Positions 11,861 through 62,704 are shown, numbered from the stretch's first letter. The stretch is DNA of 64,000 nt from a virus (IMGVR_UViG_3300043427_004450:7984-71983); one strand, 5' to 3'. Translations and numbers: made by a program. Notes: generated from the sequence alone by a model not told the origin.

Positions 11861-12550
11861 CTAAACAATAATATCGGCAATGCCCATCTTTACTGCTTCT
11901 TCTGCTGATAGATAAACATTTACCTTACGGTTAATCATTCTCTTTAGTTGGGCCACGGAAAGATTTGATTCGTCAGAAAGTGCTCTCAAATAAGCCTCCT
12001 GCATATATCTCATTTCTTCCATTTCGTTCTCTAGATTGTGGAATGAGCCGGATGTTCCACCTATTACGGAGTGAATCATTACTCGACAGTTCTTTCCAAT
12101 CTTACGCTGACCCTTTGTTCCTGCCGCAAGAAGAAGGACTCCAGCAGACATTACCTTTCCAATTCCAAAGGTAACAATTGGGCACTTCTCCTTCACAACA
12201 CGCATAATATCATAAAGAGCAAACATATCATCTGCTGAGCCGCCTGGAGTTGAAAGAAGAAACTCAATAGGAAGAACCTCTGCTTCAGCCTCTTTCTTTT
12301 CCTCTTCTCCATCTTTGCCTTCAGCTACTTCTGTATCAGGCTCTACCTCTGCGGTTTCGGCCATATCTAGCATCATGCCGATAATCTGAGCAACCTTGTT
12401 CTCTTCAACCTCACCGAATAGGCCGATGATTCTTGAATCATCATCTTTTGGAATAAGAATCATTTTTGGGTCAGATGATCCTTCGCTCTCAACTCCTTCT
12501 TCGTCACCGTGATCGTGACCATCGTTTAGTTTTTTAGATTTAAATAACAT
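11861..12550 (-). CDS. clpP: ClpP-family protease (S14)
   Basis: LSTPGGS, GKVMSAG (catalytic Ser), VMIHS (His) and YLSAEEAVKMGIADII. Confidence 0.92.
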   Translation of the reverse strand: MLFKSKKLNDGHDHGDEEGVESEGSSDPKMILIPKDDDSRIIGLFGEVEENKVAQIIGMMLDMAETAEVEPDTEVAEGKDGEEEKKEAEAEVLPIEFLLSTPGGSADDMFALYDIMRVVKEKCPIVTFGIGKVMSAGVLLLAAGTKGQRKIGKNCRVMIHSVIGGTSGSFHNLENEMEEMRYMQEAYLRALSDESNLSVAQLKRMINRKVNVYLSAEEAVKMGIADIIV

Positions 12551-21186: not shown

Positions 21187-22672
21187 ACTTTCTCCTTTTA
21201 AAAAATCCACTCTTCAAAATAGCCAATGACGGGCTTTGACTTATCAAATATTTTTGTTATATCCAGCAGTGCTTTTTCTTCTCTAGAGTCAATAGAGAGG
21301 CCTTCTTCGTTAATAACCTGCTTTCTAAGTCCTTTTTCATCAGACATATATAGCTCATAGTTATTAAAAGTCTTTACAGCCAAGATTGCTTTTTCTGCAT
21401 CTTCTTCTGATACTTCTATAACTAAAAATCTTCTTTTTTCAGGAAAAGGATCTAAAACATCTACAAGGTAATGCTTTTCGTTCCATTTTATTATACCAGA
21501 AATGGGGCCATCCCAACTTCCAAGAACACAGATCGGAGTTATTTCTTCGTTATCAATCTTTGGCAGCATTGAATAAGGATAAATCCAATCTTCATCTTGA
21601 GTTTTTTCTCCAAGATCAGAAAACTCTTTTGCCGTTAAGAAGTGAGCCATATTATTATTTCTTTGATTTCTCGGCACATGGAGAGCATAGGTTTTTAATC
21701 CAGCCATTTGTTTTTACTGTGGCTTTTTCTCCGCAGTTTTCGCAAGTTTTTGCCGACATGCTCTCAGCAAAAGAAACCATACCGCGAATGTAATCATCGC
21801 CACCATCATAATAAAAACGCAAGCTGCCAAACTTTTCCTTAACTTGAACGGCAGTTATTTGAGGACAGAATTTATTGTTATTATTATGCATTGCCTTAAC
21901 TGTCCAGTTAATATGCTCTTGTGCTCCATGACAAAGAGTGTTTATTAAATCATACCAACCATCACCACAATCAAAATAAAAGTGTTTCTGATTAAAAATA
22001 TGTGGATACTTTGACTTAAGCTCTTCTTCTTTCTCTGGAGACATTACTCCACCTTGCCGTCAATCTTATTATCCTCTAGAATTTGCTTCTTTAGCTCATA
22101 AGAATGTCTATAGTCTGTTTTGCCATTCTGGTGATAGAAGGCAACATAAGAAGAGAAATAGCTTTTTTCTACAGCGTGATTCTCAACAAAGAACCAGGTT
22201 CCTTCTGCTAGATTCTTCTGAATTTCATCAAAGAGAGAGATAGGATCTTCGTAAGAATAATCCTCATCCTCTTCTTCATCTAGCTCTTCGCCCTCTTCTT
22301 CGGAAGATTCTTCATTAAGTGCTGAGGCTCTGATTTCTGGACCAGAATCACAGAATCCATCGCCAACAAACTTGAAGGTTCTATCGCCATATTCATAGAG
22401 CTTGATATAAGCATCGCTAGAAAGATAGCCAGACTGAAGATTTCCTTCCTCGGCTAGAAGATCAACGATCTTATTAATATACTCTACTGCTGCATCATCT
22501 TTTAGAATGAACTTTGAGGTGGTATAGCGATCAACTGTAACGGACATTGTTATTTCTCCTGTGGTTTAAACTGAGCATAAGGCAGATGGGGCACAGATAT
22601 CAGCTCTCTGTGCCATTTTGGTATTATTATCGGCCATGCTAAATTATACGCCTAGCGGCAGATTGAAAGAGA

Positions 22673-23038
22673 CTAATCTTTTAGCTGCTTCTTTCTTTCT
22701 TCAAATCGCTTCTGCCAACGCTTAACATCGTCAAGAAGGTGAAGGTTCTCTGTTCTGTAATTACCAAGGTGACCAAAGAATAGGTGACAGTTTACGCCAT
22801 ACTTCTTTGTCTCGCATAGTGAGATCAGATTGGAAGGCTCCAGCTCAAGCTCTGGAGCAATATGAAATGGCTTTATGTGATGGACTTCAACATTAACATT
22901 ACAGCCGCAAACAGCACAGACAGGAAACTCTTTTAGATGGGCTTCTCTTACCTTTGGCCAATCTCTAGATCTTTTTTGATTCCAGTCTCTCTTTTTGTCA
23001 ATAAGGACTTCTTTTATTTCTTTTAGTTTTGATATCAC
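22673..23038 (-). CDS. HNH endonuclease
   Basis: CAVCG...EVHHIKP...NLISLC...CH. Confidence 0.85.
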   Translation of the reverse strand: MISKLKEIKEVLIDKKRDWNQKRSRDWPKVREAHLKEFPVCAVCGCNVNVEVHHIKPFHIAPELELEPSNLISLCETKKYGVNCHLFFGHLGNYRTENLHLLDDVKRWQKRFEERKKQLKD

Positions 23039-23062
23039 AACTATATATTATGATATTAGTAA

Positions 23063-24139
23063 CTACCTTGCTGACCTTGCTATTGTGGTTATTTTTGCAG
23101 TAATAGTATTAGTTCCAATGTTAAAGAACGTTGATTGCGGTGTACTTACTGCATTTCTCCTTGTTCCGTCAGAATATATTATTGAGACAGATACAGATGT
23201 TGGTATAAGTAAGCCATTTGGATTCTGTGGAAGAATTGCTTCAGCAAACTGATTAATGCTAACAGGGCTTGCCTTTGGGAATGTTGCATTTGAGTTTTTA
23301 TTTACAATCTGATTTCCTTTCATTACTATTCCAGCTACGCCATAAGGAACGAATGCAGAAGCTCCCTTTAAAAGATTTGGATCTATTGATGCCTTATCTA
23401 TTACAATAGCACACTTTATCCCGTCTTTAAGATTTGGTTGTAGCAGCCAACTTATAAGAGCTTTATCTGCGCCACTTCTCTCAATAATCTGTTCATTTAT
23501 TATTGTGCCTATTTCATAGCCAAGTAGTCCGGCTGATATTACCGCTCCTGTTGTTGCTAGTGCGGTTCCAGCGCCAATTGCTCCAGCCGTTCCTGCTGCC
23601 GCCTCTGTTGTTCCTACTGCGGCAGCTCTTCCAACTGTACCAGCCGCTCTTCCTGCTGTACCAACAGCCCTTGCTGCCGCTGATTCTGCCTTAGCAATCT
23701 CATATGCTTTTGAAGAGGTATCCATTAGTTTTTTGGTTTGTCCCTTGGACAGAACATCAGATACTTTTTTAGATGTGTCGGTTAATTTTTTTATCTGACT
23801 CTTTGAAAGAGGCTCTGATACTTTTGTTGCAGTATCAGTTAGCTTTTGTACCTGGCTCTTTGAAAGATATTCTGATGCTTTTGTTGCAGTATTTGCTAAC
23901 TGCTTTGCTGGACCTTTTGCAATATAATCAACAGATTTCTCAATTGCCTGTCCTGCTTTGTTTGCAACCATTTTTCCTGGTCCGTTTACAGCCTTTTCGA
24001 TAACCTCTCCGGCTTTATTTGCGATCATTTTTCCTGGACCGCTTGAAACACTTTGCGTAATTTTTTCTATATCGTCAGCTTCTTTGTGAAAGCCAGCTCT
24101 ATCAAGATTATCTGCAAGTTTTAATAGATCTTTTATCAT
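23063..24139 (-). CDS. Leader-bearing protein with 19-aa repeats and an Ala/Gly hydrophobic segment
   Basis: Leader MIKDLLKLADNLDRAGFHKEADDI; about six 19-aa repeats; GAIGAGTALATTGAVISAGLLG. Confidence 0.65.
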   Translation of the reverse strand: MIKDLLKLADNLDRAGFHKEADDIEKITQSVSSGPGKMIANKAGEVIEKAVNGPGKMVANKAGQAIEKSVDYIAKGPAKQLANTATKASEYLSKSQVQKLTDTATKVSEPLSKSQIKKLTDTSKKVSDVLSKGQTKKLMDTSSKAYEIAKAESAAARAVGTAGRAAGTVGRAAAVGTTEAAAGTAGAIGAGTALATTGAVISAGLLGYEIGTIINEQIIERSGADKALISWLLQPNLKDGIKCAIVIDKASIDPNLLKGASAFVPYGVAGIVMKGNQIVNKNSNATFPKASPVSINQFAEAILPQNPNGLLIPTSVSVSIIYSDGTRRNAVSTPQSTFFNIGTNTITAKITTIARSAR

Positions 24140-24177
24140 TTCAAACCTCTAACATATTGATTTTCAATATTAGCAGA

Positions 24178-24378
24178 TTATCTTGTTGTACCTACTCTTC
24201 CAATTTTACCATCAGATAGTATTTTCTTTATATCTTTTCCAAGATCTAAAACGCCCTGCTTGAACGGCTCAATAAAAACATATGCTGCCGCTACAATTGC
24301 AATAACAATTACTGAGATTAGAAGCATATATTCTACGGTTGATTGACCTTCTTCGTCTTTTAAAAGCTCTTTTAGCAT
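24178..24378 (-). CDS. flp: Flp-family (Tad) pilin
   Basis: DEEG|QSTVEY prepilin cleavage and Flp motif, followed by a hydrophobic helix. Confidence 0.85.
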   Translation of the reverse strand: MLKELLKDEEGQSTVEYMLLISVIVIAIVAAAYVFIEPFKQGVLDLGKDIKKILSDGKIGRVGTTR

Positions 24379-24635
24379 TACTTTACCTCATCAACAGACT
24401 GATCGATCTCTTGGTTCCACTCAGTTCTAAGTTTAACAAGAGGATTAAAGCTTGCTTTTTTTCTTTCTAATACAAGTGCAGATTGTGGCTTTTGAAGAAC
24501 TCCCTCTATCTCAAGCTCTTCAAAGTCAATCTCGGTCTTATTCTTATAAACTACTTTTGCTTCACCATCGTCGGCAGCATGAGCGGCGTGTGGTGGAAGA
24601 AGGATTAGGGATAATATTAAAGCTTTTCTTAGCAT
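24378..24635 (-). CDS. CglF/GltF-like gliding-motility protein with signal peptide
   Basis: Signal peptide ending AHA. VVYKNKTEIDFEELEIEGVLQKP...F.PLVKLR closely resembles myxobacterial CglF (from recall). Confidence 0.75.
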   Translation of the reverse strand: MLRKALILSLILLPPHAAHAADDGEAKVVYKNKTEIDFEELEIEGVLQKPQSALVLERKKASFNPLVKLRTEWNQEIDQSVDEVK

Positions 24636-25228
24636 TGAGCCTCCAGCAATATAAAAATATATTACCAGCTACTCCTTGCTAGACTCAAGCCAATCTTCAA
24701 TTTCTTCGTCTGTCATTGTCTGAAGCTGCTCGATGGTAAGAGCGCTAAGATCCTTCTTTCCATCCCAAGGAGCTTTTGCATAAGGCCCATCAATATCAAA
24801 GATGGGATACTTAATGCAATCTCTCATCATTCTTTCTAGATCCAGCTTCAAACCATCTTTAACCGCTTCTTCTGTATCTCCCTCCTCAGCATCGGCATAG
24901 GACTCAACAGGTTCTTCGGTGCAGGAATGTGGCATTAGAGGATCTTTATCATAGAAAAGCTCTCCAATACCATAGAATCTTTGCTCTGGTTTTAGTTTGT
25001 TTCTGTATTTTACAATTCCATAACGCCAATGCATGATTACTCCTAGCAGCTAACTCTTGGATCTGAAAGACTATCTTCTCTTGGTTTTATATCAACAGAT
25101 CTCAAAATAGATTCCCTTGAAAATGAAATTATAGATCCGTCTTCAAGAATACCCTTGACTGTCGGAGTATTCTCTGAGGTTTCATCAATTTCTACGGTAA
25201 GAATTACTTTTACTTTCTTTTTCATTTT

Positions 25229-26287
25229 TTATCCGTTGTATTTGCAAAATTCGTCATAAGCAATAGGTAGTGGGTCGATATTTAGCATGGCACTAGATAG
25301 AACATGACGAAGCTTTGGATGATTTATTGCAATATCTTTTCTTGATACTCCAGATTTAATCAATTCCTTTGCCTCTTCCCACTCAGATTCTACCGATGCC
25401 CTATATTTTACCCATCGTTCATCAATAGCATCAATCTTTTGATTGATCTCAGCAAAAAATTCATCTGGAATACCATCCATTGAAAACTTTCCCGCTTCCT
25501 TTCTTTGCATCCAAAGCTTAAAAATGCCAGAGTCAGATAGACCAGTAACTACCTTATGAAGTTGAACATAAGTCTCGGTCTTAATCTTGCAGCGTTCTCC
25601 CTTTATATTTTTAAGAACAACGCCTTCAAAGTTTGGATTAACCTCTCTCTTGATCAGATCGTAAGAAAACTCTTCTGCGGTCCAAAGCTTTGGCATTTTG
25701 AATCCAAAGCCTTCTGCATAAGATCTAATCTCTTCTGCGGTTGCTTCGACGGCAGATTGAGTATCTACAATTCCAAGAAGGATTAGCGAATCCTTCTCAT
25801 AATTTCTAACAACATTTATATTTGATGGGCCAACCAACTCAAAAAGATAAGTCTTTTTGTGATCCGCACCAGAAAGAAAGCGTTTGCTGAGAAGATTTGG
25901 AGCGGATAGAGCCTGGTCTGATACCCAGCTTCCACGAGTAATGGTATGCCAAGAGCCTTCCCACCAAAAAGCTACAATTAGTGACCCATCTTCCTTAGTC
26001 CAAATCTCTGAGATTTTATCTGGAGAGAATTCCGAAGAAGAAGCTCCAAGTTCTTCAAAGTTAAAAAACTTCTTGAATGGTCTGGCTGCAACCTCTCCTT
26101 CATTAGAGATTACTAAGCCGCGACAAATAGAATTAACTTCGTTAAAAGCCTTTGAGAACTGAGTTTGCTCAGTGTAGTTATAAATGGAAAGCGGGAGGTT
26201 TGAGTGGGGAATTCTGCGAACTCTACCCAGCTCAACCTCTACCGCTAAATTTGCTAAAAATTCTGCGCTTAACATTAGTCTATCCAC
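25229..26287 (-). CDS. RNA ligase, T4 Rnl1-like
   Basis: CRGLV, PFKKFFN, KEDGSL (motif I), FELV, EGVV and KIK. Confidence 0.9.
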   Translation of the reverse strand: MDRLMLSAEFLANLAVEVELGRVRRIPHSNLPLSIYNYTEQTQFSKAFNEVNSICRGLVISNEGEVAARPFKKFFNFEELGASSSEFSPDKISEIWTKEDGSLIVAFWWEGSWHTITRGSWVSDQALSAPNLLSKRFLSGADHKKTYLFELVGPSNINVVRNYEKDSLILLGIVDTQSAVEATAEEIRSYAEGFGFKMPKLWTAEEFSYDLIKREVNPNFEGVVLKNIKGERCKIKTETYVQLHKVVTGLSDSGIFKLWMQRKEAGKFSMDGIPDEFFAEINQKIDAIDERWVKYRASVESEWEEAKELIKSGVSRKDIAINHPKLRHVLSSAMLNIDPLPIAYDEFCKYNG

Positions 26288-27101
26288 TCCTTATTTAATA
26301 CATTTCATAGCTTTTCCAAATTAAATTGTGCAGAATAGACCGGTGTTTCTAGCACAGGAGAGACTCCTACTTCAACAACTTCAAGCCCCAACACAAACTC
26401 AATGCTACCCTCCACCTTCATTCTTCTTGCTTCTTTTGAAGCATTTGTTATAAAAGCTTTTGCTGGGCCAACATTACCAAAAAGCTTAGTCTTTCTTCCG
26501 AATGGAAAAAATTGATTTTTATAAGCTGGAGTATAAAAGCGTCCTGACTCAGAAAATGTATCAGTTGGACGATGATAAATTGCATAAAGTTTCATATAAA
26601 TATCTTACTTATAGTATTTTCTTTGAATTAAAGATGTAGGATCTTTGCCGTCTCTAATTATTATTCCTTCTTCTGAAACCAAAAGATAATATATCTCATG
26701 CCAAAATACTTCTTTTTTATTTATAATCATTGTTTTTGGCTTTAGATAAGCAATAACAGGCAGCTTAACTCCAGATTTTCTCTGGAGATTAAACTGATCT
26801 ATCAGCCCACTTCCTGCAAAGACTTGGCTGATATCTTTAGATGCAACTCCAGATCCATTTATAAATTCTTCAAGTGTCATTATTCTTTGTATTTAGCTCC
26901 CACCAAACTCGGAGCCACCAATAAAGATACTGAATCTGCTTCTCTAGCAGAACACGAAGTATAATTGAGCCACCAATGCCAAGAGCAAATGCAATTGGAA
27001 TGTTTAGTGGGCCATACACTACCCCCATAGCTCCGCCAAGGATGCCACAGAAGATTGCTGAGATAAGAATTCTAAAGATAAATAGAGAGGTTGGCTCTGA
27101 A

Positions 27102-31019: not shown

Positions 31020-32294
31020 TCACCAAGAACCTCTTAAGATACTTGGTATATCAAATCCTCCATCTTCATTTTGATAAAGCTCTATTATTGCTGCAACACA
31101 TCTTCCTACTGCAAGACCGGATGCATTAAGAGTATGAAGAAACTCATTCTTTCCAGATGCAGCCTTATATTTTAGGTTGGCACGACGAGCCTGAAAGTCC
31201 CAGAAAAGAGTGGCAGATGAAATCTCTCGATAAGCACCCTGTCCTGCCATCCAAACCTCAATATCGTAACCCTTGTATCCACCAAAGCCAAGGTCTGCGG
31301 TACAACGCTCAATTACTCTATATGGCAAACCCAACTCCTGCAATACTGATTCAGCATCAGCAGTAATCTTTTCAAGTTCTGCCTGCGATTCAGATGGATT
31401 ACAGAAAGATACAAGCTCTACTTTGTGAAACTGATGAAGTCTAATTAGACCTTTAATATCTCGACCGGCTGAACCCGCCTCTGCCCTAAAGCAAGGCGTA
31501 AATGCAACGTGTCTAATTGGAAGTGAATCTTCCGAAAGAATAACGTCGCGATAGAGGTTTGTCACAGGAACTTCTGCCGTTGGAATTAAAAATCCATCTT
31601 CACCGCCCAATTTGGCAGTTACTTTGAATAAATCTTCTTCAAATTTTGGAAGCTGACCTGTTCCTGTCATTGTTGTGCGAGTTACAATGTAGGGTACTGC
31701 AACCTCAGTATAACCTCTGCTGGTATGCCAATCAAGAAAAAAGTTTGTCAAGCGACGATCAAGCTTTGCTACATCGCCTTTCATTACCATAAATCTTGAA
31801 CCAGAAAGCTTTGCACCATCTTCTCCAGATAGAGTTCCGGTGTTTTCTCCAATTTGATCGTGAGTTAATGTCTTCTTTACTGCAAGATGATCTCCCCAAG
31901 AACGAACAACAGGATTGTCAGAGTCTCCTTCTCCATCTGGTGTTGAGTCAGATGAAATGTTTGGAATATGAAGAAGAAGCTCTTCTTCTTTCTCCTGAAG
32001 AGGAAGAAGAGAAGCCTCCAGATTTTGGATTTTCTGTTTAAGCTCAACCAAAGAAGATTGCTCGACCTCTCTTTCTTCTTTGGTAAGGCTCTTTGCCTTT
32101 TGTCCAAACTCTTTGCTTCTAATGTTCATTTCTCCTCTAAACTTATCGAGGAGAGATTGTGTTTCTTTTCTTGTTCTAATCAAAGATCCAATTTCACAAA
32201 GATAAGTGGATATTTCCTCATTTTTTCCAGACTTTCTCTTTATCTTTGCTACTGTTGAATCATAATCTTTTATGAATAAATTTTTATCTAACAT
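31020..32294 (-). CDS. serS: Seryl-tRNA synthetase
   Basis: N-terminal coiled coil, GTGQLPKFEEDLF, LIPTAEVP, FRAEAG, GLIRLHQFHKVE and HTLNASGLAVGR. Confidence 0.97.
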   Translation of the reverse strand: MLDKNLFIKDYDSTVAKIKRKSGKNEEISTYLCEIGSLIRTRKETQSLLDKFRGEMNIRSKEFGQKAKSLTKEEREVEQSSLVELKQKIQNLEASLLPLQEKEEELLLHIPNISSDSTPDGEGDSDNPVVRSWGDHLAVKKTLTHDQIGENTGTLSGEDGAKLSGSRFMVMKGDVAKLDRRLTNFFLDWHTSRGYTEVAVPYIVTRTTMTGTGQLPKFEEDLFKVTAKLGGEDGFLIPTAEVPVTNLYRDVILSEDSLPIRHVAFTPCFRAEAGSAGRDIKGLIRLHQFHKVELVSFCNPSESQAELEKITADAESVLQELGLPYRVIERCTADLGFGGYKGYDIEVWMAGQGAYREISSATLFWDFQARRANLKYKAASGKNEFLHTLNASGLAVGRCVAAIIELYQNEDGGFDIPSILRGSW

Positions 32295-35800: not shown

Positions 35801-36106
35801 ATGTCTATAGCAAAAACAATAGAAAAGACTCCAATGCAATCTAAAAAATTCTTGGCGTATCTTTTGAGCAATATAGTTAACAAGGCACTTATATTTTGGA
35901 TGGTTCAAAAAGAAGTTAGCGGAACAACAATAGCTTGGACAGTAACTGCGGCTGCCTTTATTGATATTGGTTATATCTTAGGACAAGCCGCATTAGATGG
36001 ATTTGTAAGAATGGCTCAAGTAAAGGGAGCCAGCATTATAAAATCAGTAAAAATTACTCAGACTGACTCCAGCGAGGAGGGCGACGACCAGCCAACTCTT
36101 CCCTAG
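35801..36106 (+). CDS. Small membrane protein, candidate holin
   Basis: SKKFLAYLL plus a second hydrophobic segment ending YILGQ; TACTAAT upstream; close to the GH73 gene. Confidence 0.45.
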   Translation: MSIAKTIEKTPMQSKKFLAYLLSNIVNKALIFWMVQKEVSGTTIAWTVTAAAFIDIGYILGQAALDGFVRMAQVKGASIIKSVKITQTDSSEEGDDQPTLP

Positions 36107-36383
36107 ACTCCCACTCTTCTATATCCTCTTCGCTTGGCTCTTCTTCTCCAAACTCTTCTGCTTGATATCTATTTAGATCTTCAATTTCTTCTTCTGATAA
36201 TGGCTCGTCTGCGCCTTCAAGTAGTGCTTCAATATCTTCTTCTGTTGCATATCCTGCATCAGAATCGGTATCATCATCAAGTTGTGATGCAACTCTCTTG
36301 ATAATTAGGTCTACAATATCTGATTCCTTCTTGAATCCGGCTTTATCAAGCTCTTGTGCAATTTTTACTAAATTTTTTAACAT
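36054..36383 (-). CDS. Leader-bearing acidic protein
   Basis: MLKNLVKIAQELDKAGFKKESDIVDLIIKRVA followed by a D/E-rich body. Confidence 0.65.
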   Translation of the reverse strand: MLKNLVKIAQELDKAGFKKESDIVDLIIKRVASQLDDDTDSDAGYATEEDIEALLEGADEPLSEEEIEDLNRYQAEEFGEEEPSEEDIEEWESREELAGRRPPRWSQSE

Positions 36384-47965: not shown

Positions 47966-48036
47966 AGCAGGCAACCAGATTCGAACTGGTGATAAAAGGA
48001 TGGAAACCTTTTGTGTTACCGCTACACCATGCCTGC
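47966..48036 (-). tRNA. tRNA-Gly(TCC)
   Basis: Cloverleaf; AAAGG-TT TCC AT-CCTTT; GTTCGAATC; no encoded CCA. Confidence 0.92.
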
Positions 48037-48044
48037 GATGTTAA

Positions 48045-48341
48045 GCAGAGAGAGGTTGGCAAGGGTACTAAACCTTGCTCCTTACATAATCTTTGGATTA
48101 TTCGGTCAAGAGTCTCCGACGAACCGCGAATTCATCATCAATGACTCTGCTGGATTAACCAGCATAAGGTGTTCTTTCTAGTCCGTATAAGCACCTTAAT
48201 TATTTGGATAACGGAACGACACAGCCCTTCGTTATCCTCCTATACCTTATCCTCTAATTATCTCAGACGTATCCTGTGTCTGGCGACACTGCATGACTCC
48301 CCAAAAGATAAGGGATTTAACATGCTTCAACCTCTCCCTGC
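48045..48341 (-). ncRNA. Unassigned ~297-nt structured RNA
   Basis: A 14-bp stem joins the ends and encloses at least 7 hairpins; TATAAT just upstream; no credible ORF. Confidence 0.7.
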
Positions 48342-48688
48342 AATATTATAGTACCCATGATGATTAGATAAAAGCTAAAAAATTATTCTTCAATATTAAT
48401 CCACCTAGTACATTCTGGAGTCACGACAGATTCTGAACCATCATACTCATCAATCTTATAGAGTGGAGAATCAATGGTGGCAATACAAATATTAGAATAA
48501 TCACCAGATGCTTCCTCTACAAGTTCTTCTATCACTTGAATTAGAAGAGGATGGTGACGCGGCATATCCTCATATTCATAATGACGATCATACTTAACGC
48601 CAAGTTCCTTTAGTCGTTCAACTGCCTTATTTGAAAGGCTGAAGCCACCATAGCATCCGTTAAAAGCAACCTTGTAAGTTTTAGACAT

Positions 48689-49048
48689 TTAATCTCCCGT
48701 TGTATAGTCGTCTGCTGGAGTCCAGCCTGATTCACCAAGATCTAGCTCGTAAAAATTTGACTTGCAAACAATATCAGATACTCCTGCCTTAAATCTCTTG
48801 GAACCATTAAGTCCAATATTTTGATCTAGCGACTCTGTATCTGCAACATTTATGCAGGTTGTTTCTTTTGTCCTTTCATCAAACTTACAAAAAGTAATTC
48901 TTGAAGTTAGAAAATTACTTCCGCACATTACGTCTGATGCAATATAAAACTCACCCGATCCACCGCCCGTAGAAATTGAGTTTATACGAGAGGTTGGCCC
49001 ATGATATACCGACTTAACGGTACAGGCAAGGAGCATTATAAAAATCAT
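48689..49048 (-). CDS. Small putative lipoprotein
   Basis: MIFIMLLAC. Confidence 0.5.
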   Translation of the reverse strand: MIFIMLLACTVKSVYHGPTSRINSISTGGGSGEFYIASDVMCGSNFLTSRITFCKFDERTKETTCINVADTESLDQNIGLNGSKRFKAGVSDIVCKSNFYELDLGESGWTPADDYTTGD

Positions 49049-49066
49049 TTAATCTCCAAGTTAAAG

Positions 49067-49143
49067 TGGCGATCCCAGCTGGACTCTAACCAGCGACCTA
49101 TTTTTTAGGAAAAAATTGCTCTATACAGCTGAGCTATGGGATC
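49067..49143 (-). tRNA. tRNA-Arg(CCT)
   Basis: Cloverleaf with CCA; all-A/U anticodon stem; T-loop TTAGAGT. Confidence 0.85.
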
Positions 49144-50811
49144 TTATATCAATTCATTTTACCAATTCTATCACATTTTCTCAGCAGAAAAGACCTGCTG
49201 ATGAACTACCTCTGCTACTGAAATTGAAGGAATAACCCTCACAATCTCTAGTCCAAGGCAAAATTCAAGATCCGGCTTAAAATGTTTCTTGCAGTAATTG
49301 GTAAAGTTTGTTAAAGATCTCTTGCAACCCATTCTACTCCAATAAAGGTGAGGAAAAGCATCATCACCTAATGGCTTAAAACCAAACCTAGAAGGAACAT
49401 CCCAAGTAGACCAAGTATCTGTTGGGCGATGATAGATTGCAAAATATTCGTTCATACCTTACCTCTAGGCTACCTTTCTCTGAAGATCCGCAAGATTCTT
49501 ACATGATGTAATCTTAGCGATCCAGCTTGCAACCTCATTTGCCGTGACATAACCTTGGACGGTATCTCCACCAAAGTCTAGCCAAGTGCCAGCTTCATCC
49601 CAAATCCCAATCTCGGCATCCTCTGAGGAATGAATACCGTCTGTTTCTAGATTTGCCATAGCAATAGTGGGTCGCTCCATCTTATGCTCGCAGTAACTTC
49701 CTCCGCGAAACATAACGGAAATTGTTAGACCGTTATCAAATGTCATCTGAAAGCCACCAGAAACAATTGCAAACTTGCTAGTACCGTTTTCCATTTTATA
49801 CTCCTTAGATTAGTTTACTTCACATTCGTTGATTGTGTAATATTCGCCCCAATTATTTGTAAAGTAGCGAATAACGCTGGCTCCGACTTCTTCTTCCCAT
49901 TTGTGCTCTATATTTTCACCATCCTCATCTTCTTCTATCTCTGGAGGAAGATTCAGAATGTAATTTGCGGCATCCTCTTCTTTGGAGAAAACCTTGACGA
50001 CAATAGAGCCTTCTTGATAGTAACCATGAGAAACAACGTAGACTTTCATCGTTCTTTAACCAACAATTCTGCATCAACAATTTTAACACGACAATCTGGC
50101 ATAAATGCTACAAGCTCCCCTGTTGCAAGACTAACTGCGTTAAAGTAATTTTCATTGGCATCATAGATTTCCTCTACTTTCATAAAGTAATTGTGAAAAT
50201 AATTGTGTCCATCGCAAAAGGTAACACCAATACCAACATTATTCCAATCGGTTTTGTTTTTATCATTTTCAACAATAGTGACTTTCATTTAGTCTCCAAA
50301 AATTTCTTTAAGGTTGCCAATTGAGCAGTTCTTACCGTGACTCTGGTTTGCATTACCTCTACAACACGAATAGCGAGCATAGAATCTTCCATACCCTCCA
50401 TCCTTATTGCGTTCAACAAAGTCCGGCATGTCACTGACGAGATTCTTGATCTTCTTAAGTAGGACTAGAGCTTCTTCGTGACTAAGCTTTGAAATATCAA
50501 TCATTTTTCAGTCCATTCGCGAAGGTCAACGATATCCCACCAGTCATAGTTTCTTCCATCAATCTGATGAGATTTTCCAGTAATTTCCTCTTGACCTTTG
50601 CGTTTGCCGTGAGTAATTATTCTTTTATGCTCCACAAAAGTTACTTTTGTGGCTGCCTCTTCATAAGTTGAGAAGCAACCAATCCAATTTCCTGTGTATG
50701 CTTCGGGATAATAATTGTCACCAGCAATAAGTAAAAATCGTTTCATTCTGACACCTTCTTATTTGCCATATTATCCTTGGCTGAATTCGCGGTGTTCCTT
50801 CCCGCCTCTAG

Positions 50812-50839
50812 AATATAAGCACCCTACGGGTGGGGTCAA
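50812..50839 (-). promoter_or_regulatory. Sigma70-type promoter TTGACC-N16-TATATT
   Basis: Direct reading. Confidence 0.75.
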
Positions 50840-50951
50840 GGGTCAGAGAGAAAAATAAAAGAGGCAAAATAAAAGACCCTATCCACCCAATCAAAACCCT
50901 TTCTAAGATAAATGATTCTATTATTTTTTATCTCAATATCAGGAAGGCTTT

Positions 50952-51455
50952 ATGAACAAAAAGTTAGTTAAAGTTGCAAAACATCTAAATAATCTTGGCT
51001 TAACAGCTTACGCAAATGAAATAACCTCTCTTATAAAAAACGCCGGATATTCAGATCTTTCTTTTGCAATTCAGAATGATATTTCTGAAGAAGAAAGAAG
51101 GGTAAAGCTTGCAATACCAGGTATTATAGAGAAGCACATTAATTTATTTAAAGAAAAATTTGAACAAAAATTTTCAAGATGGAAAATGGAAATTAGCTTT
51201 AAATATGAAGAACCAGAGCGTTATGGCATTGGACGTGGAGTAACATATGATAATGGCTCTGTTTCTATTAGTGTTATTATAAATACCGAAATAACTGATG
51301 ATATTTATGCAACATTCCATGATGATCTTGAGTCTATGGAAGAATGGTGTAGATCTGAAGCTGGTATAAGGCTTGATTTTGGAATGAGCAGTTCAGTATA
51401 CTCTCTTGATACAGACAATCTTCCAATTGAAGGAGGAGCTGCTTTTACCCTTTAA
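50952..51455 (+). CDS. Leader-bearing hypothetical protein
   Basis: MNKKLVKVAKHLNNLGLTAYANEITSLIKNAG; CTATTATT upstream. Confidence 0.6.
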   Translation: MNKKLVKVAKHLNNLGLTAYANEITSLIKNAGYSDLSFAIQNDISEEERRVKLAIPGIIEKHINLFKEKFEQKFSRWKMEISFKYEEPERYGIGRGVTYDNGSVSISVIINTEITDDIYATFHDDLESMEEWCRSEAGIRLDFGMSSSVYSLDTDNLPIEGGAAFTL

Positions 51456-51457
51456 GG

Positions 51458-51479
51458 TGGATGGGGCGGAAGGACTCGA
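51458..51479 (-). pseudogene. Orphan tRNA 3' fragment (displaced tRNA-Gln end)
   Basis: TCGAGTCCTTCCGCCCCATCCA reads as T-loop, T-stem, acceptor strand and CCA, complementary to the 5' end of tRNA-Gln at 52283. Confidence 0.7.
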
Positions 51480-51485
51480 TAGAAT

Positions 51486-52196
51486 TTATTTTGTTTTTTT
51501 TGAATATTGCTTTGCCCAATATCCACGCGGTGGCTTTTCTATTTCATATGATTTTGTCCACTTTTCAACAGCCTTATCTGATACGCCATACTTTCTTGCA
51601 ATTTGCACAGTCGGAATCTCCCAAACTAGTATCTTTAGATCTTCTTTGCTTGGCCTCTGAACTATTCTTTTATCTGGGCGTTCTTTAGATTTTTTATTCT
51701 CAAAATTATTTTTATTTACTTTTTTCTTCATATTCTTGCCAGAATGTGTTGGCAAGGCAGCATTACACATTGGACAAACAATTCTTAAATTTTCCAACCT
51801 ATTATCGTTCCAAACTCCATTAATATGATCTAATATCAGGGATATTTTTTGACCAAGCCAATTTTCATCCTGTCCACAACCAGCCATTTCGCATATAGGC
51901 TTTTTTAAGCCTTCTTTGTAGAGCCTTCTTTTTAGATTTGTTCTGCTTGCTTTTGAGTTTTCTACCAAAAGAGCTTCTATTGGGGTTTTTTTAAATTTTG
52001 AGCTTTCCCAATTTCTCATGCCAATTTCTGATTGTGTTAAAAAATGAGAGGTACTTATATTCCACTCTTTGCAATTTAGCTTAAAGTTTTTATAAGCATC
52101 TGTAGTTCCCCTAATTCCTAGGGCAGTAAGAGCTTCTTTTATTGTTTTTGATGATGCAATAGCATCAGACAATTGATTTTTTGAATATTTAGACAT
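51486..52196 (-). CDS. HNH endonuclease with C-terminal HTH
   Basis: LDHING..NDNRLENLRIVCPMC; C-terminal RPSKEDL...IARKYGVSD...KPPRGYW. Confidence 0.9.
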   Translation of the reverse strand: MSKYSKNQLSDAIASSKTIKEALTALGIRGTTDAYKNFKLNCKEWNISTSHFLTQSEIGMRNWESSKFKKTPIEALLVENSKASRTNLKRRLYKEGLKKPICEMAGCGQDENWLGQKISLILDHINGVWNDNRLENLRIVCPMCNAALPTHSGKNMKKKVNKNNFENKKSKERPDKRIVQRPSKEDLKILVWEIPTVQIARKYGVSDKAVEKWTKSYEIEKPPRGYWAKQYSKKTK

Positions 52197-52209
52197 TTAT
52201 ATTATAAAG

Positions 52210-52283
52210 TGGAAGGGGTGAAAGGATTCAAACCTTTGATGGTAGGGCCAGAACCTACTGCCTTATCGCTTGGCTACACCCCA
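52210..52283 (-). tRNA. tRNA-Gln(CTG)
   Basis: GTAGG-TT CTG GC-CCTAC; CCA; U1:U72 mismatch; T-loop TTTGAAT. Confidence 0.85.
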
Positions 52284-52480
52284 ATAAAATTGTTGTATTT
52301 AATATTACCAATTTTATTAATTTTAAACAAATAATGATGGTAGAAAGTTTCAGGCCTGCATTGAGAATGGTATCGAGCTTTGCATAATTGATACATCAAA
52401 GCAGAGCTATTTTAAAGAAAGTACTTCACAAAAATACTTAGATATAATCTGCAATATTATTGATAGTAAGATTTCTGGAT

Positions 52481-52525
52481 AATAAAGAAACAACCCCAAG
52501 CTCAATAAGAGACTTGGGGTTGTTT
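52481..52525 (-). terminator. Intrinsic terminator after tRNA-Ser
   Basis: 13-bp inverted repeat aaacaaccccaag/cttggggttgttt with a T-rich tail. Confidence 0.8.
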
Positions 52526-52531
52526 GAGACA

Positions 52532-52617
52532 CAGCTAGGGTGAGATTCGAACTCACGGTGCTTTTTAGACACGACAGTTTTCAAGACTGCTTCCTTAAAC
52601 CGCTCGGACACCTAGCT
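52532..52617 (-). tRNA. tRNA-Ser(TGA)
   Basis: GCAGT-CT TGA AA-ACTGT; long variable arm; G discriminator. Confidence 0.9.
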
Positions 52618-52681
52618 ATTATGAACTATGCTTTAATATTACCAGAAAGTTATTTTGTAAATAGTTTTTTATAAAAATACT

Positions 52682-53338
52682 TTATTTACTCTCTGAATAT
52701 TTCTTTGCCCAATATCCACGAGGAGGCTTATCTATTCCATAGGATTTTGCCCATTTTGATATTGCAACATCAGAAACGCCATAAGTCTCTGCAAGCTTTT
52801 GTGTTGGTATCTCCCATAAGAGTTTTTTTAAATCTTCTTTTGAAGGTCTTTCTGCTTTTCTAGTTTTTAATCTAGATTCAATAACGCTCTGCGTTACTGT
52901 TGGAGTTACAGTTTTCCCAAAGTCTTTATATGTTTTTTTGTTTGCAACATCAGTAAATTCTGTAAAATCTTCCCACCAATAAAATGGTGTTGCAGAATTT
53001 CTTATCTCTGTTGCAATTGTTACTCCCTTAAATTTAATGGAGGGATAAACGACCTTATCAATATCTGGAAGATATATTCCATAGTAATCAAAATCACTAT
53101 CATTATAGCTTTTTCTATGGTTACCCCTTCTATCAGAATAGATAGTTGATTTTCTTGCTGTGCCATCTGTAGAATATTTGCATTGAATTCTTTTAAATTC
53201 ACCATCTTTAAATGCAACAATATCAAATGGAAGCGACTCGCATACAACCGGTGTTAATATAACATAACCTTTTTTAGATAGGTCTGCTATAACCTGGGTT
53301 GTTCCCATATCTCCTTTTAGTGTTTTTTCAGTTCTCAA
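52682..53338 (-). CDS. PD-(D/E)XK homing-type endonuclease (I-Ssp6803I-like) with C-terminal HTH
   Basis: KGDMG...PFDIV...RIQCK...FDYYGIY; C-terminal domain very similar to that of 51486..52196. Confidence 0.8.
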   Translation of the reverse strand: MRTEKTLKGDMGTTQVIADLSKKGYVILTPVVCESLPFDIVAFKDGEFKRIQCKYSTDGTARKSTIYSDRRGNHRKSYNDSDFDYYGIYLPDIDKVVYPSIKFKGVTIATEIRNSATPFYWWEDFTEFTDVANKKTYKDFGKTVTPTVTQSVIESRLKTRKAERPSKEDLKKLLWEIPTQKLAETYGVSDVAISKWAKSYGIDKPPRGYWAKKYSESK

Positions 53339-53425
53339 GTTTGACTCCTTATTATTTATACTATTTTATTAGTATTTTTACTTAAAAATAATATTTTTGA
53401 ATCAAACTTTTTTAAGATTAAAGTA

Positions 53426-53463
53426 AAATAGATTCTAATTAACGCAAAAGTTAGAATCTATTT
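53426..53463. terminator. Hairpin, probable terminator
   Basis: aaatagattctaa / ttagaatctattt. Confidence 0.6.
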
Positions 53464-54060
53464 CACTTCTTTTTTATACCTCAACCTTCATCGTTCCACT
53501 CTCAACTTCTACTTCAATTTCCCAGCCTCTCAAATAAGGCTGGGCTTTCTTCAACTCCCCATATGAAACTTCAAGAGTTGCAGTTAGTGTACAATATCCT
53601 CTCTTGTGATCATAACGCTTAACGCTGCTTTCGATATACTCTTGATCAAAAAAATTATTAGAGATACCATCGTGAATGTCGCCCCAACTAATATTAAGAG
53701 TTGGCTCTACGCCTTCTTCTTCAGACTCTTCTCTAAAATCATCAAGAGTAATAACATAAGAATCATCGAGTTCATCGAGGGCAGGGATAACGCCCTCGCT
53801 AACCTTCTGTAGAGCCTCTAGAAGCTCTGAGAATCGCTGGACGGTATCTGTACCCTCTACCGCGTCACCCACGCCTCCATCGTCTTTATAGTGCAATACC
53901 TCGCATCCATCGGAGTAAGTTAAGGTGAGAGTGGTATCGTCGGATAGATTTAGGGATTCTAGTTTGGTGAGGTATTCTTGCATTTCGGATTCTCCTGCCA
54001 AAATTGTACCTTGCTGTTTACTTTGACACTAAGTAATTTGTAATTTTGATTATTATGGCG

Positions 54061-54081
54061 GATAACAAAAAAGCCTCCAAG
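54061..54081. repeat. 21-bp direct repeat (second copy at 55475..55495)
   Basis: GATAACAAAAAAGCCTCCAAG is exact at both sites. Confidence 0.9.
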
Positions 54082-54173
54082 GGCTACTTTTCCTGTCCTT
54101 AGGATATAGGTGTGGTAGTAGAGGATCAAGAGGCTGAGAAAGAAACTTTGGATGATATCAACAAACCTGTCTT

Positions 54174-54224
54174 TCTATTATTAAAGCATCTATTACTAAA
54201 GAATCTATTATTAAAGCATCTATT
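54174..54224 (+). repeat. 15-bp tandem repeat x3.4 containing the late-type motif
   Basis: tctattattaaagca / tctattactaaagaa / tctattattaaagca / tctatt. Confidence 0.85.
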
Positions 54225-54236
54225 TGGAGTTTTATT

Positions 54237-54935
54237 ATGAATAAATTAAATAAATTAGCAAAATTATTGTTAGAATATCCAGAAGAGCACAGCATGTTAA
54301 AGGATCTTTCTAGAAAATATGCTGGAGTAATACCATATAGTGATGAGTCTGGTGCTAAAGGTCTTAGTACAACTCAGCAGTTGGGGTATGCGTTTCAACG
54401 TGGCATCATTGATAATACACAGTCTGGAGCAAAGGCAGTTGCAACCGGACAGGCTAATGTAACCCCCACTGCAAAACAAGTATTTACTAATGCCTTTAAT
54501 TCAAAAATATTTGATTGGACTCTTACTTCATTAGCGGCAATGGCAGATGCTATTCCTGTGGTTGGTATTCCAATATCAATCGGAATTGCACAAGGACAAG
54601 TAGTAAAGTCTGCCGCAAAAGCAGATTGGCTTAGCGTTGCCTTCTCTATACTTTCCATGTATCCCTACATAGGAGACGCTCTCTCAGTCATAGGTAGAGC
54701 AATAAAAAATGGTGTGCCTGTTTCTACTGAAGTAGCAAAAAATCTTGTAAAAGCTTTTGCTAAAATCACAAATAGCGAGTCTAGAAAGGCGATAGCTAGA
54801 TTTGTTGGAGACCTATTTGGTAATAAGGGTCCAGCATACGTAACTCAAGTGGTGGACAACTCAATGACTGCCCTAAATAATTTCACCGCACAACTTAATC
54901 AGTATGCTTTAGGTCAGGCTTCGCGACCAGCATAA
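54237..54935 (+). CDS. Leader-bearing protein with pre-toxin-TG-like hydrophobic hairpin
   Basis: MNKLNKLAKLL...RKYAG; DAIPVVG...LSMYPYIGD. Confidence 0.55.
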   Translation: MNKLNKLAKLLLEYPEEHSMLKDLSRKYAGVIPYSDESGAKGLSTTQQLGYAFQRGIIDNTQSGAKAVATGQANVTPTAKQVFTNAFNSKIFDWTLTSLAAMADAIPVVGIPISIGIAQGQVVKSAAKADWLSVAFSILSMYPYIGDALSVIGRAIKNGVPVSTEVAKNLVKAFAKITNSESRKAIARFVGDLFGNKGPAYVTQVVDNSMTALNNFTAQLNQYALGQASRPA

Positions 54936-54951
54936 GCAATGATTAAGATTT

Positions 54952-55452
54952 TTAAAGTGATATGTCTCTAGGACGAACCCAAATTTCATTTTGAATTCTG
55001 TTTCTCTTACCACTATCACTAAAGTTAAACCCTCTATAGAGCTTACGTAATTTTTCTGGAGCATCTGACTCAATATTAAAGGCAGGATCTATTGCCAAAC
55101 TAGAGGTATAACCATTAGAGTCAATAATTTTAATAACCTCTTTAAGTAACTTCTTTCCAAATCCACTACCTTGACTATCTGGCTGAACACCAAGAGAGCG
55201 AATGTGTAAGTTGTCGTCTTCAATTTGATAAAGAACATAGCCTATTAGGCTGTCTCCATCCAACAGAACGAATCCTTCTGATCCATCAAAAATGCTGGAA
55301 TCTCTATCGCCAAAAACCTCTTCATCTAAATCCAAAATTTGATCATTATATTTTGGATGATAGTTAACTAACGATGGTCCTTCTGCTTTGTCTAAATCAA
55401 TATTTAGAGAAGCTAGGGCCGCTTTAAGGGTGTTTAGTTTTCTTTTAATCAT
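54952..55452 (-). CDS. GNAT acetyltransferase with leader-like N-terminus
   Basis: Acetyl-CoA motif LGVQPDSQGSGFGKKLL; LY..FNF. Start at MIKRKLNTL. Confidence 0.85.
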   Translation of the reverse strand: MIKRKLNTLKAALASLNIDLDKAEGPSLVNYHPKYNDQILDLDEEVFGDRDSSIFDGSEGFVLLDGDSLIGYVLYQIEDDNLHIRSLGVQPDSQGSGFGKKLLKEVIKIIDSNGYTSSLAIDPAFNIESDAPEKLRKLYRGFNFSDSGKRNRIQNEIWVRPRDISL

Positions 55453-55480
55453 AAAAGAATCAGAATAAATAATAGATAAC

Positions 55481-55514
55481 AAAAAAGCCTCCAAGATTTT
55501 ACTCTTGGAGGCTT
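55481..55514 (-). terminator. Intrinsic terminator ending the tRNA cluster
   Basis: AAGCCTCCAAG/CTTGGAGGCTT stem with a T run. Confidence 0.85.
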
Positions 55515-55517
55515 AAA

Positions 55518-55605
55518 TGGTGGGAATGGGTTGAATCGAACAACCGACGACCTAAGGTAACGGATTTACAGTCCGGTGCAATCTACCAACAATTGCAACA
55601 TTCCC
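55518..55605 (-). tRNA. tRNA-Tyr(GTA)
   Basis: CCGGA-CT GTA AA-TCCGT; variable arm; ACCA. Confidence 0.85.
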
Positions 55606-55611
55606 TAAAAG

Positions 55612-55709
55612 ATGGATAGGTTCCGAATTGAACGGACACCACAGGTATGCATCCCTATTGTGGCAGTAGCATTATACTCTCATGAAGCATAGTCTCTACT
55701 CCTATCCAT
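55612..55709 (-). ncRNA. tRNA-like RNA of non-canonical fold
   Basis: 9-bp terminal stem ATGGATAGG/CCTATCCAT; T-arm TCCG-TTCAATT-CGGA; two long hairpins in place of the D and anticodon arms. Confidence 0.6.
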
Positions 55710-55712
55710 AAG

Positions 55713-55789
55713 TGGTGCCCCACCGCGAATTCGAATCGCGACTGTACCCATTTTGAGCGGGTTTCCTCTACCGGTTGGGATAGTGGGGC
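55713..55789 (-). tRNA. tRNA-Leu(CAA), short variable loop
   Basis: ACCCG-CT CAA AA-TGGGT; ACCA; 77 nt. Confidence 0.88.
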
Positions 55790-55802
55790 TTATACCTCTA
55801 TC

Positions 55803-56519: not shown

Positions 56520-56592
56520 TAAAGAGTCTTCTACCTATATTAAATAAGTAGTAGAAACCGTTAATGACACCACAATATATTTATTTAAAACG

Positions 56593-56676
56593 TAGCTTCT
56601 GAGGGGGATGATCCCTCAATCCCTTACGGGCGACAGATTTTAAGTCTGTTGCGTATGCCAATTCCGCCAAGAAGCC
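56593..56676 (-). tRNA. tRNA-Leu(TAA)
   Basis: ACAGA-CT TAA AA-TCTGT; long variable arm; atypical T-loop ATCATCC. Confidence 0.85.
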
Positions 56677-56805
56677 AAGATCTCTGTCTTTCCAGAGTGC
56701 CAAATCGCTTTTGCTCTTACGATTATTGAGTATCGTCGGGGCTTCCGACTATGCCTCACGTTTTAATTATACCAAGTTGATTATTTTCTATCTAATTATT
56801 TTTAG

Positions 56806-56888
56806 TGGCTGGACGGGTCGGATTTGAACCGACGTTGCACAAGGCACAGATTAACAGTCTGCTGACTAAGCCACTAGTCTACCGTCCA
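56806..56888 (-). tRNA. tRNA-Asn(GTT), long variable region
   Basis: GCAGA-CT GTT AA-TCTGT; GCCA; 83 nt. Confidence 0.85.
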
Positions 56889-56894
56889 ATAAAA

Positions 56895-57280: not shown

Positions 57281-57355
57281 TGGTAGTCGCACGGAGAGTT
57301 GAACTCCGGTTGCAAGAATGAAAATCTTGAGTCTTAACCCCTAGACGATGCGACC
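57281..57355 (-). tRNA. tRNA-Glu(TTC)
   Basis: CAAGA-TT TTC AT-TCTTG; ACCA. Confidence 0.9.
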
Positions 57356-61838: not shown

Positions 61839-62606
61839 TTATTTTTCTCTTCCAAATGTTTGTACCCCAGAGAATGTATATGGCTCAGTAGTAATTCCTG
61901 GTCTAAATTTCCATGTTACCATTTTTTGCAATAAGCAAGCATCAAATTCTTTGTTTGCTGGTATTGAAGTTGCTTTGTGGTTACTTGTTGCGCCATCTTT
62001 GTCTACTGTAAATGTTAGTGTTGTCTTTACAGAAAAAGATGGGTTAGAGTTTACTGCAGTTGATACACAGCTAGCAAGCTGTCTTTTATATGAATTATAT
62101 CCTTCGGTTATTGCATCCCTTGTTGGATCTGGTTTTTGAGAAACTTCCGCAGCCTTTGCTGCTGCCTGAGAAGACAATGCACTCTTGAGTCCTGGTAGAT
62201 TCTTTGTAAGATTATGAATTAATACATCCTGTCTTTCTGCATTTATTTTTCCTGATTCATCAGATGTAAAGATGCTTATAAAATAGGTGCATTTTGCTCT
62301 TTCTGGAAAACTTGCAAGATTATTGCTTATTTGTTTTACAAAATCTTGTAACTTAAACTCTCCAATTCTATATGTATCTTCTGGGCATTTTACACCAAGT
62401 CTATATACTCCACTTTTTTGAAGCTCAATCATTTCTGCTGGCTTTGGCTTTGGAGTTTCTGCCACTGGTGTTCCCATTGACTGCGGTGTGGCTGATTGAG
62501 TTGTTTCCTGAGCGTATCTTCTCAATAAAAAATCAACTTTATTTGCTTCAGATATATTTCCAAATTTATCTAATTCTGTTGCTAATTTTATTAACTCTTT
62601 AATCAT
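61839..62606 (-). CDS. Leader-bearing protein with AgmX/PglI (TonB-C-like) C-terminal domain
   Basis: Leader MIKELIKLATELDKFGNISEANKVDFLLRRYAQ; LASCV.....NPSF.V..TLTFTVDKDG...FDACLLQKMVTWKF. Confidence 0.7.
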   Translation of the reverse strand: MIKELIKLATELDKFGNISEANKVDFLLRRYAQETTQSATPQSMGTPVAETPKPKPAEMIELQKSGVYRLGVKCPEDTYRIGEFKLQDFVKQISNNLASFPERAKCTYFISIFTSDESGKINAERQDVLIHNLTKNLPGLKSALSSQAAAKAAEVSQKPDPTRDAITEGYNSYKRQLASCVSTAVNSNPSFSVKTTLTFTVDKDGATSNHKATSIPANKEFDACLLQKMVTWKFRPGITTEPYTFSGVQTFGREK

Positions 62607-62704
62607 AAATTCTCCAAACTTACTTATCAACAATTCTTTTTTTGATTAGTAGTTTGTGCTGCGGGGCTGCTTTGCCGGAATAAACTGAGGACAAAAAAGA
62701 AATA

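Follow-up and report, generated by a model that had tools for sequence, protein, structure and literature searches.

The question raised by this locus is why a virus should carry, as two overlapping genes, apparent counterparts of a small protein of the bacterial gliding motor and of the pilin of a Tad pilus. The pair lies in what we refer to as the window, that is, the whole 64,000-nucleotide stretch of DNA that was analysed, and the window in turn belongs to a 71,983-bp IMG/VR virus record with an estimated completeness of 37%. Two overlapping genes with a TAATG junction had been described here in the initial annotation, and both open reading frames were found at the expected coordinates, on the minus strand. 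The features of this region are:

24378..24635, minus strand: gltF/cglF-like gene, an open reading frame whose product is an 85-aa secreted protein
24178..24378, minus strand: flp-like gene, an open reading frame whose product is a 66-aa Flp (Tad-type) prepilin
24376..24391, minus strand: coupling junction between gltF and flp, read from the sequence
24636..24682, minus strand: upstream leader of the gltF-flp pair, pattern matches only

Reading of the sequence shows that base 24378 is common to the TAA stop codon of gltF and the ATG of flp, giving TAATG on the coding strand. A GGAGG is situated 5 nt 5' of the gltF ATG, and a GAGG is contained within the final gltF codons, 7 nt 5' of the flp ATG; this layout of a TAATG with an internal GAGG is typical of genes whose translation is coupled. 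The 1-nt overlap of gltF and flp recurs in the related record L002, and 4-nt ATGA overlaps are found in L005, L006 and L007. Pattern matches in the leader (24636..24682) comprise the GGAGG, an AT-rich stretch and a weak terminator-like hairpin closing the preceding gene, and a promoter scan upstream of the pair gave no signal exceeding shuffled expectation. In the phage the pair is flanked by RNA ligase on one side and by HNH on the other.

A 358-aa repeat-rich ORF (23063-24139, minus strand) directly 3' of flp constitutes an indel (window 23067-24181); it is missing from an independent contig of 127.5 kb, which skips from 23066 to 24182, and also from L002. In a metagenome variant (run X6), a stretch of 758 different letters takes the place of positions 24199-24382, which include most of flp, and there is a 927-letter insertion at 25043/25044. 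The window has two HNH endonuclease genes (22673-23038 and 60884-61276, both on the minus strand), and in L002 one HNH gene adjoins the gltF-flp unit downstream, where it may mark a mobile or recombination-prone spot.

The region had been taken to be phage DNA and not a chimera with host sequence, and this view is in keeping with the virus genes, the base composition and the recurrence of the same arrangement in an independent contig. The window encodes a head maturation protease (11861-12550), an endolysin, an exonuclease, a DNA ligase, an RnlA-like RNA ligase and HNH nucleases, in addition to 14 tRNA genes (all within 47966-58508) and a seryl-tRNA synthetase (31020-32294, minus strand) that has 45% identity to the serS of large phages. 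Possession of serS together with many tRNA genes is a feature of very large phages. The GC content of the gltF-flp pair is 0.367 compared to 0.379 for the window, and GC3 is 0.29 and 0.21 for the two genes; homologue-bearing bacterial loci range from 0.49 to 0.74, or from 0.56 to 0.70 for the gltF loci alone. Because the composition of both genes is phage-like, we consider a chimera to be excluded for the gltF-flp stretch, as judged from its sequence. The pair is also covered by contigs of other studies, one of which (127,544 bp) spans 22000-27000 and differs mainly in the indel of the neighbouring 358-aa ORF, and in L002 the neighbours of the pair are identical to those in the window. Taking identity and ownership together, we hold with high confidence that the two genes are of GltF and Flp type and that the pair belongs to the phage.

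A reading in which bacterial DNA was misjoined to, or misclassed as, virus sequence could appeal to a related contig (L012) that was placed in a MAG labelled Bdellovibrionota and to a viral record (G312) that is classed as a provirus. We rejected it as having a negligible chance of being correct: both genes have phage base composition, the same context is repeated in independent assemblies and in L002, there are 21 viral records in all, and the clusters closest to the GltF-like protein in the ESM Atlas are unnamed and 100% viral. L012 (JBBAUR010000108.1; 8.9 kb, 51% GC) itself carries, besides GltF, several other genes common to viral loci, and is probably a phage contig that was mis-binned into the Bdellovibrionota-labelled MAG; the rest of that genome gave no match to phage Flp. 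Terminase_6C was not found on five viral fragments that are 24-40% complete, an incompleteness that makes this null uninformative.

With regard to the 85-aa protein, its proposed likeness to CglF/GltF held up in two ways, through a full-length profile match and through the position of its orthologues in bacteria. The N-terminus has the appearance of a Sec-type leader of about 20 aa (MLRKALILSLILLPPHAAHA followed by ADD, as judged by eye); there is no transmembrane segment and no other domain, and no Pfam family was matched. Against the NCBIfam model NF033764 (gliding_CglF) the protein scores 57 bits (E 1.5e-15), and the alignment is colinear and full-length, with residues 5-83 matching model positions 3-87 of 88. 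The curated equivalog cut-off of this model is 90 bits, and at a score below it the protein is no equivalog by NCBI's rule. The HMM comparison with CglF and Flp families suggested in the initial annotation thus came out mixed: the NF033764 match is significant but does not reach the cut-off, and the Pfam Flp scores discussed below are sub-threshold. Our interpretation is that the 90-bit cut-off marks close kin of Myxococcus, since only 3 of 301 genomes (a sample from the phylum of one homologue-bearing MAG) pass it and since positional orthologues in bacteria score 54.6-57.4 bits on NF033764, level with the phage protein. A profile made from phage-type GltF sequences matches 123 genomes of the same sample.

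Homologues of both proteins are numerous in a large protein collection (366 for the 85-aa protein and 576 for the 66-aa protein), and the sequence likeness of each to its homologues is far beyond chance. An alignment-based genome scan recovered 65 bacterial loci with GltF homologues at 38-73% identity, unlike a single-sequence pattern scan of genome contigs, which gave no match for GltF. A GltG-type C-terminal motif is present no more than 4 kb downstream and on the same strand in 56 of the 65 loci; the nine loci that lack it consist of one phage contig and eight loci with less than 3 kb of downstream sequence. By their NCBIfam matches, the bacterial homologues sit between GltE-like and GltG-like genes with GltC upstream, and the matches around a bacterial homologue are to GltC, a GltD-like TPR protein, GltE, GltG and CglE/GltH. 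The phage gltF itself lies away from any gltE/gltG cluster. Our reasoning for placing the 85-aa gene within the GltF lineage proper is that its bacterial relatives are located in gltC-D-E-F-G-H clusters and score equally on NF033764; by sequence, the phage gene belongs to this lineage, on a branch remote from Myxococcus. The MAG loci L031, L040, L046, L050 and L058 have, 200-500 bp upstream of gltF, another GltF-like ORF that has diverged further (29-41% identity to the phage protein), and from this it would appear that some members of the host lineage have gltF in tandem duplicate.

The best-characterized relative is GltF of M. xanthus, which in the sections of Luciano et al. 2011 (PMC3169522) used here is described as an 89-aa protein with a signal peptide that is essential for gliding and is recruited to focal adhesion clusters, and as being restricted to Myxococcales and Bdellovibrionales. 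Portions of a second paper (PMC11761067) describe GltF as largely disordered and present an AlphaFold model in which its C-terminal helix occupies a crevice in GltC and a strand pairs with the TonB-like C-terminal domain of GltG. The AF2 model of the phage protein (pLDDT 64) is mostly disordered with a C-terminal helix at 65-84. The phage protein resembles M. xanthus GltF (MXAN_4868), as far as the latter is covered in those sections, in being small and disordered, in having a signal peptide and a C-terminal helix and in lacking a Pfam domain, and its closest bacterial relatives are likewise encoded between gltE and gltG. It differs in being encoded by a phage, away from other glt genes and coupled to a pilin gene, and in scoring 57 bits on a model with a 90-bit cut-off, as a sequence from a lineage that appears distant from Myxococcus.

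The second gene had been described as encoding an intact Flp prepilin, and weak matches to Flp-type Pfam models, an invariant cleavage motif and an all-helical model speak for this. The 66-aa protein has an 11-residue leader and a cleavage motif after G11 (G11-QSTV-E16-Y17, that is, QSTVEY17 following the cleaved bond), a hydrophobic alpha1 helix, a second helix and a conserved DGKIGRVGTTR tail. GQSTVEYM is invariant in all 19 aligned phage and bacterial rows. The AF2 model is all-helical (helices 2-34 and 36-55; pLDDT 81 overall and 94-97 across residues 21-50), so that in size and fold the protein falls within what is expected of an Flp pilin (50-80 aa, alpha-helical, with a hydrophobic N-terminal helix). 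The matches to Pfam are weak: Flp1_like, Class_IIIsignal, DUF4244 and Flp_Fap were hit with E values of 0.003-0.04 and with scores that fall short of the gathering thresholds (14.1 bits against 32.2 for Flp_Fap, PF04964, and 17.3 against 33.5 for Flp1_like). Several of the 576 homologues carry the JGI name 'Flp pilus assembly pilin Flp'. A Foldseek search of the PDB with the Flp model returned no matches, and neither did the Flp HMM profile against PDB sequences at E up to 1; as short helical hairpins match poorly, we draw no inference from these nulls.

There is a possible parallel for the phage Flp in the Kil pilus of M. xanthus. According to the parts of PMC12075869 consulted, its major pilin KilP (mxan_5121, 97 aa) is encoded apart from the kil clusters, one of which contains the minor Flp KilK, and in the corresponding parts of that paper and of PMC8460266 formation of the Kil pilus coincides with a pause of gliding on prey. 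The phage protein has in common with Flp/KilP pilins its short length, a fully helical structure, a G/XXXXE(Y) cleavage motif and the hydrophobic nature of the alpha1N helix. A further point of analogy to KilP is that the phage-like Flp appears as a stand-alone gene in host-lineage genomes. It differs from KilP in length (66 aa versus 97 aa), in being phage-encoded and in scoring below threshold on the Pfam Flp models. The Flp profile found no match in five genomes with a Myxococcus-type GltF. Given that we found no sequence link to KilP in this comparison, the Kil connection is one of analogy only.

We also considered how the pair is distributed. Counting the window, gltF is present in 13 viral records and flp in 18, and 10 records have both. 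The two genes are adjacent or overlapping in 6 of these 10 (once in reversed order) and are separated by 0.5, 2.3, 2.3 and 4.7 kb in the other four. On the fragments of three gltF-bearing and eight flp-bearing viral records the partner gene is absent (fragments 4-39% complete). As the viral records are fragments, with completeness values between 4 and 40%, a missing partner means little; these same values imply genomes of jumbo size. In bacteria, gltF and flp were found together at none of 139 loci within the fetched flanks, and at least 16 MAGs hold the two genes on separate contigs. From the lack of linkage at all 139 bacterial loci we infer that the linkage of gltF to flp is an invention of the phages. 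In our reading the pair is a host-derived envelope module in a clade of large (jumbo-size) freshwater phages, and we give even odds to this account taken together with the role proposed for the products below.

Trees were built from two short alignments, and many of their forks are unresolved. In one, L012 groups with the 13 viral GltF sequences in a single clade (SH-aLRT 97) that lies within freshwater MAG sequences; in the other, the 18 viral Flp sequences share a clade with a single high-GC bacterial row, L091 (SH-aLRT 95). The sister group of the viral Flp clade comes from the same freshwater MAGs as the GltF relatives. Both genes are under strong purifying selection, the median dN/dS being 0.075 for gltF (25 of 66 pairs computable, the others being saturated) and 0.052 for flp (56 of 91 pairs computable). 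The flp products of L151 and the window are identical across 62 residues, and GC3 is 0.77 in the former and 0.19 in the latter. On the aligned sequences, each phage gene is a faithful copy of a bacterial-lineage version, GltF/CglF, a small periplasmic linker in the Agl-Glt-type envelope motor, in the one case and an orphan Flp in the other.

The flp genes of L151-L156 and L160, which are phage loci of 39-45% GC, have GC3 values of 0.65-0.81, well above their flanks, and flp is fully AT-adapted in the window, L002 and L163. That flp is GC-richer than its flanks in seven low-GC phage loci suggests recent or repeated import from high-GC donors, and such a donor signal suggests in turn that those bacteria are the hosts. 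The earlier proposal of a Myxococcota-type affinity fits with the location of the nearest bacterial copies, which lie in freshwater, high-GC MAGs labelled Myxococcota or Deltaproteobacteria, these labels being titles of NCBI records of which several are plainly wrong ('Klebsiella pneumoniae', 'Rickettsiales'). Many MAGs of 60-73% GC that have a glt cluster are titled Klebsiella pneumoniae, Enterobacterales, Rickettsiales or Alphaproteobacteria, evidently in error. A Myxococcota-like host is likely, by an assignment that is indirect, and there is a mismatch in GC between the phage (38%) and the candidate host loci (56-73%). As for the machinery such a host would offer, each of four host-lineage genomes (4/4) contains two to three RcpC/CpaB loci; the phage-like Flp stands alone in host-lineage genomes, and weaker Flp paralogues adjoin RcpC/CpaB. 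Neither a prepilin peptidase (Peptidase_A24) nor TadE was found on five phage fragments.

A candidate third part is encoded 37 kb from the pair:

61839..62633, minus strand: open reading frame with a putative AgmX/PglI domain, matched by NF033768 and hhalign

The likely start of this 264-aa ORF is Met10 and no signal peptide is visible. Its C-terminal portion of about 80 residues appears to be an AgmX/PglI-type, TonB-like domain such as is found at the C-terminus of GltG/GltJ; the match to NF033768 (cut-off 40) was 41 bits in a six-frame search and 38.8 bits on the ORF. In an hhalign comparison, the nine-member family of the ORF aligned with host GltG C-terminal domains over 76 columns (probability 95.7%, E 1.1e-8). 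We tentatively regard this putative protein as a third part of the set, and it may be a decoy or a partner for GltF. An N-terminal motif of about 30 aa (MIK[DE]L[IL]KLA..LD..G) is common to this ORF (61839-62633) and to the ORFs at 23063-24139 and 36054-36383, all on the minus strand; blastp E values among the window ORFs are 1e-7 to 1e-3, and the motif occurs twice in the related record G317. It could be a targeting or propeptide segment, and the window has a head protease gene at 11861-12550.

What, then, might the products of the pair do in an infected cell? We propose that GltF would be exported by Sec, that the Flp prepilin would be cleaved by the prepilin peptidase of the host, and that both products would then join the host's own machines, a Glt-like motor and a Tad pilus. 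In the arrangement that has been modelled for M. xanthus, GltF would sit between GltC and the TonB-like C-terminal domain of GltG; a complex prediction for phage GltF residues 21-85 with the C-terminal domain of host GltG, run without controls, scored 0.26 against a mark of 0.32, a value from which we draw no inference on binding. Flp would join the Tad pilus made by the host loci that contain RcpC/CpaB. It is probable, in our judgement, that the products do enter host machines. With respect to purpose, we favor the possibility, at a probability of roughly 0.4, that the host machines are sustained and not disrupted: small, consumable subunits would be resupplied through a long infection, and surface movement and attachment (possibly including contact with prey) would thereby continue. 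There is precedent for resupply of this kind in cyanophages, which copy the labile host subunit psbA/D1 and replenish D1. The present genes are like psbA in encoding host-derived subunits, in having a phage-adapted composition and in being under purifying selection; they differ in that the subunits belong to envelope motility and pilus systems and not to metabolism.

The opposite effect, which we think unlikely, is that excess or subtly altered copies would jam or remodel the Glt-like motor and the Tad pilus, such that movement is halted or the receptors of competing phages are removed or masked (superinfection exclusion). Consistent with this idea, phage-clade GltF proteins have substitutions relative to bacterial GltF (GEL to G[IV]L, LDR to LER and DFN to DWN), and by virtue of its GltG-type C-terminal domain the leaderless phage protein could be a decoy for GltF-binding sites. 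Blocking of pili against rivals is also known in phages, examples being Tip and Aqs1, proteins of Pseudomonas phages that exclude superinfection by shutting down the pili of the host. These two resemble the phage Flp in being phage products aimed at a type IV filament system, but they are novel inhibitors of the assembly ATPase, whereas here the phage encodes a copy of the pilin itself. Poisons are often truncated or have fast-evolving surfaces, and both proteins of the pair are full-length, near-identical to the host versions at every conserved position and under strong purifying selection along their whole length. We prefer resupply of subunits to jamming or receptor masking, while acknowledging that no observation separates 'sustain' from 'disrupt' and that an overproduced faithful copy could also poison assembly.

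Two further readings concern where the products act. The target could be a Glt-like paralogue of the Nfs type, which would serve in the envelope transport of spore coat, polysaccharide or other cargo, and the link to motility would then be merely nominal. The glt cluster of the host MAGs is contiguous and on one strand (gltC-D-E-F-G-H), and since it resembles the Nfs paralogue of M. xanthus in this respect the host machine may not be a gliding motor; in the sections of PMC3169522 used here, nfsA-H is the contiguous closest paralogue of glt and functions in sporulation, and other Glt-like clusters are dispensable for motility. We nevertheless consider this rather improbable given that (i) all six host genes match gliding equivalogs best in NCBIfam, a collection that may hold no Nfs models; (ii) the downstream CglE/GltH match in the bacterial cluster passes its cut-off (93 bits versus 70) and (iii) the same sections contain the proposal that gliding may occur in any bacterium possessing AglRQS and GltA-G. 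Alternatively, phage GltF could be passed to uninfected kin by outer-membrane exchange and alter the behavior of these neighbours. The leader of GltF is Sec-type, and CglF is said to have been found by Pathak and Wall in 2012 to be among the contact-stimulatable Cgl factors of M. xanthus. This action on neighbours strikes us as very improbable, as GltF is modelled as a periplasmic protein and not as an outer-membrane lipoprotein in the portions of PMC11761067 referred to above, and no sequence feature points to transfer.

A more speculative reading, to which we would assign only a small chance, is that GltF, the leaderless protein with the GltG-type domain that GltF binds in the model, and the orphan-type Flp major pilin form a toolkit of jumbo freshwater phages aimed at the Glt force-transmission chain and the Tad pilus of Myxococcota. 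In M. xanthus the gliding motor and the pilus work jointly when a moving cell halts on its prey and kills it. If this were true, the hunting of an infected predator would be steered (stopped, or the cell kept moving or feeding), or alternatively the envelope-spanning motor would be used as a route in or out, and this would be the first virus to encode parts of a bacterial gliding machine.

The suggestion in the initial annotation that gliding-machinery genes are undescribed in phages stood up to our searches of the literature and of GenBank phages. In 50,697 GenBank phage records there was no tblastn match to the gltF or flp product at E up to 1e-3, a megablast of the 10 kb around the pair against GenBank phages gave no match, and no PHROGs family was matched by either protein. 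We found no report in the literature of a phage-encoded GltF/CglF or Flp pilin, nor one of genes for gliding or for pilins among myxophages and jumbo phages; in the accessible portion of a 2026 preprint on 790 myxophages, gliding is mentioned only in passing.

The auxiliary genes for which phages are known are for the most part metabolic. What this locus presents is a virus that carries structural subunits of two envelope machines, the gliding (focal adhesion) motor and the Tad pilus. Myxococcota-type bacteria are known for social movement and predation, and if the products work as we propose, phages would tune the movement, attachment or killing of a surface-moving, possibly predatory bacterium, which would matter for lake food webs and for our understanding of the Glt machine. 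A GltF that has naturally diverged and yet is strongly constrained marks the residues that matter in this protein, and the fact that phages link gltF to an orphan Flp points to a possible functional connection between the two machines. The pair may also help, as a marker, in linking uncultured jumbo phages to hosts of a Myxococcota-like kind.
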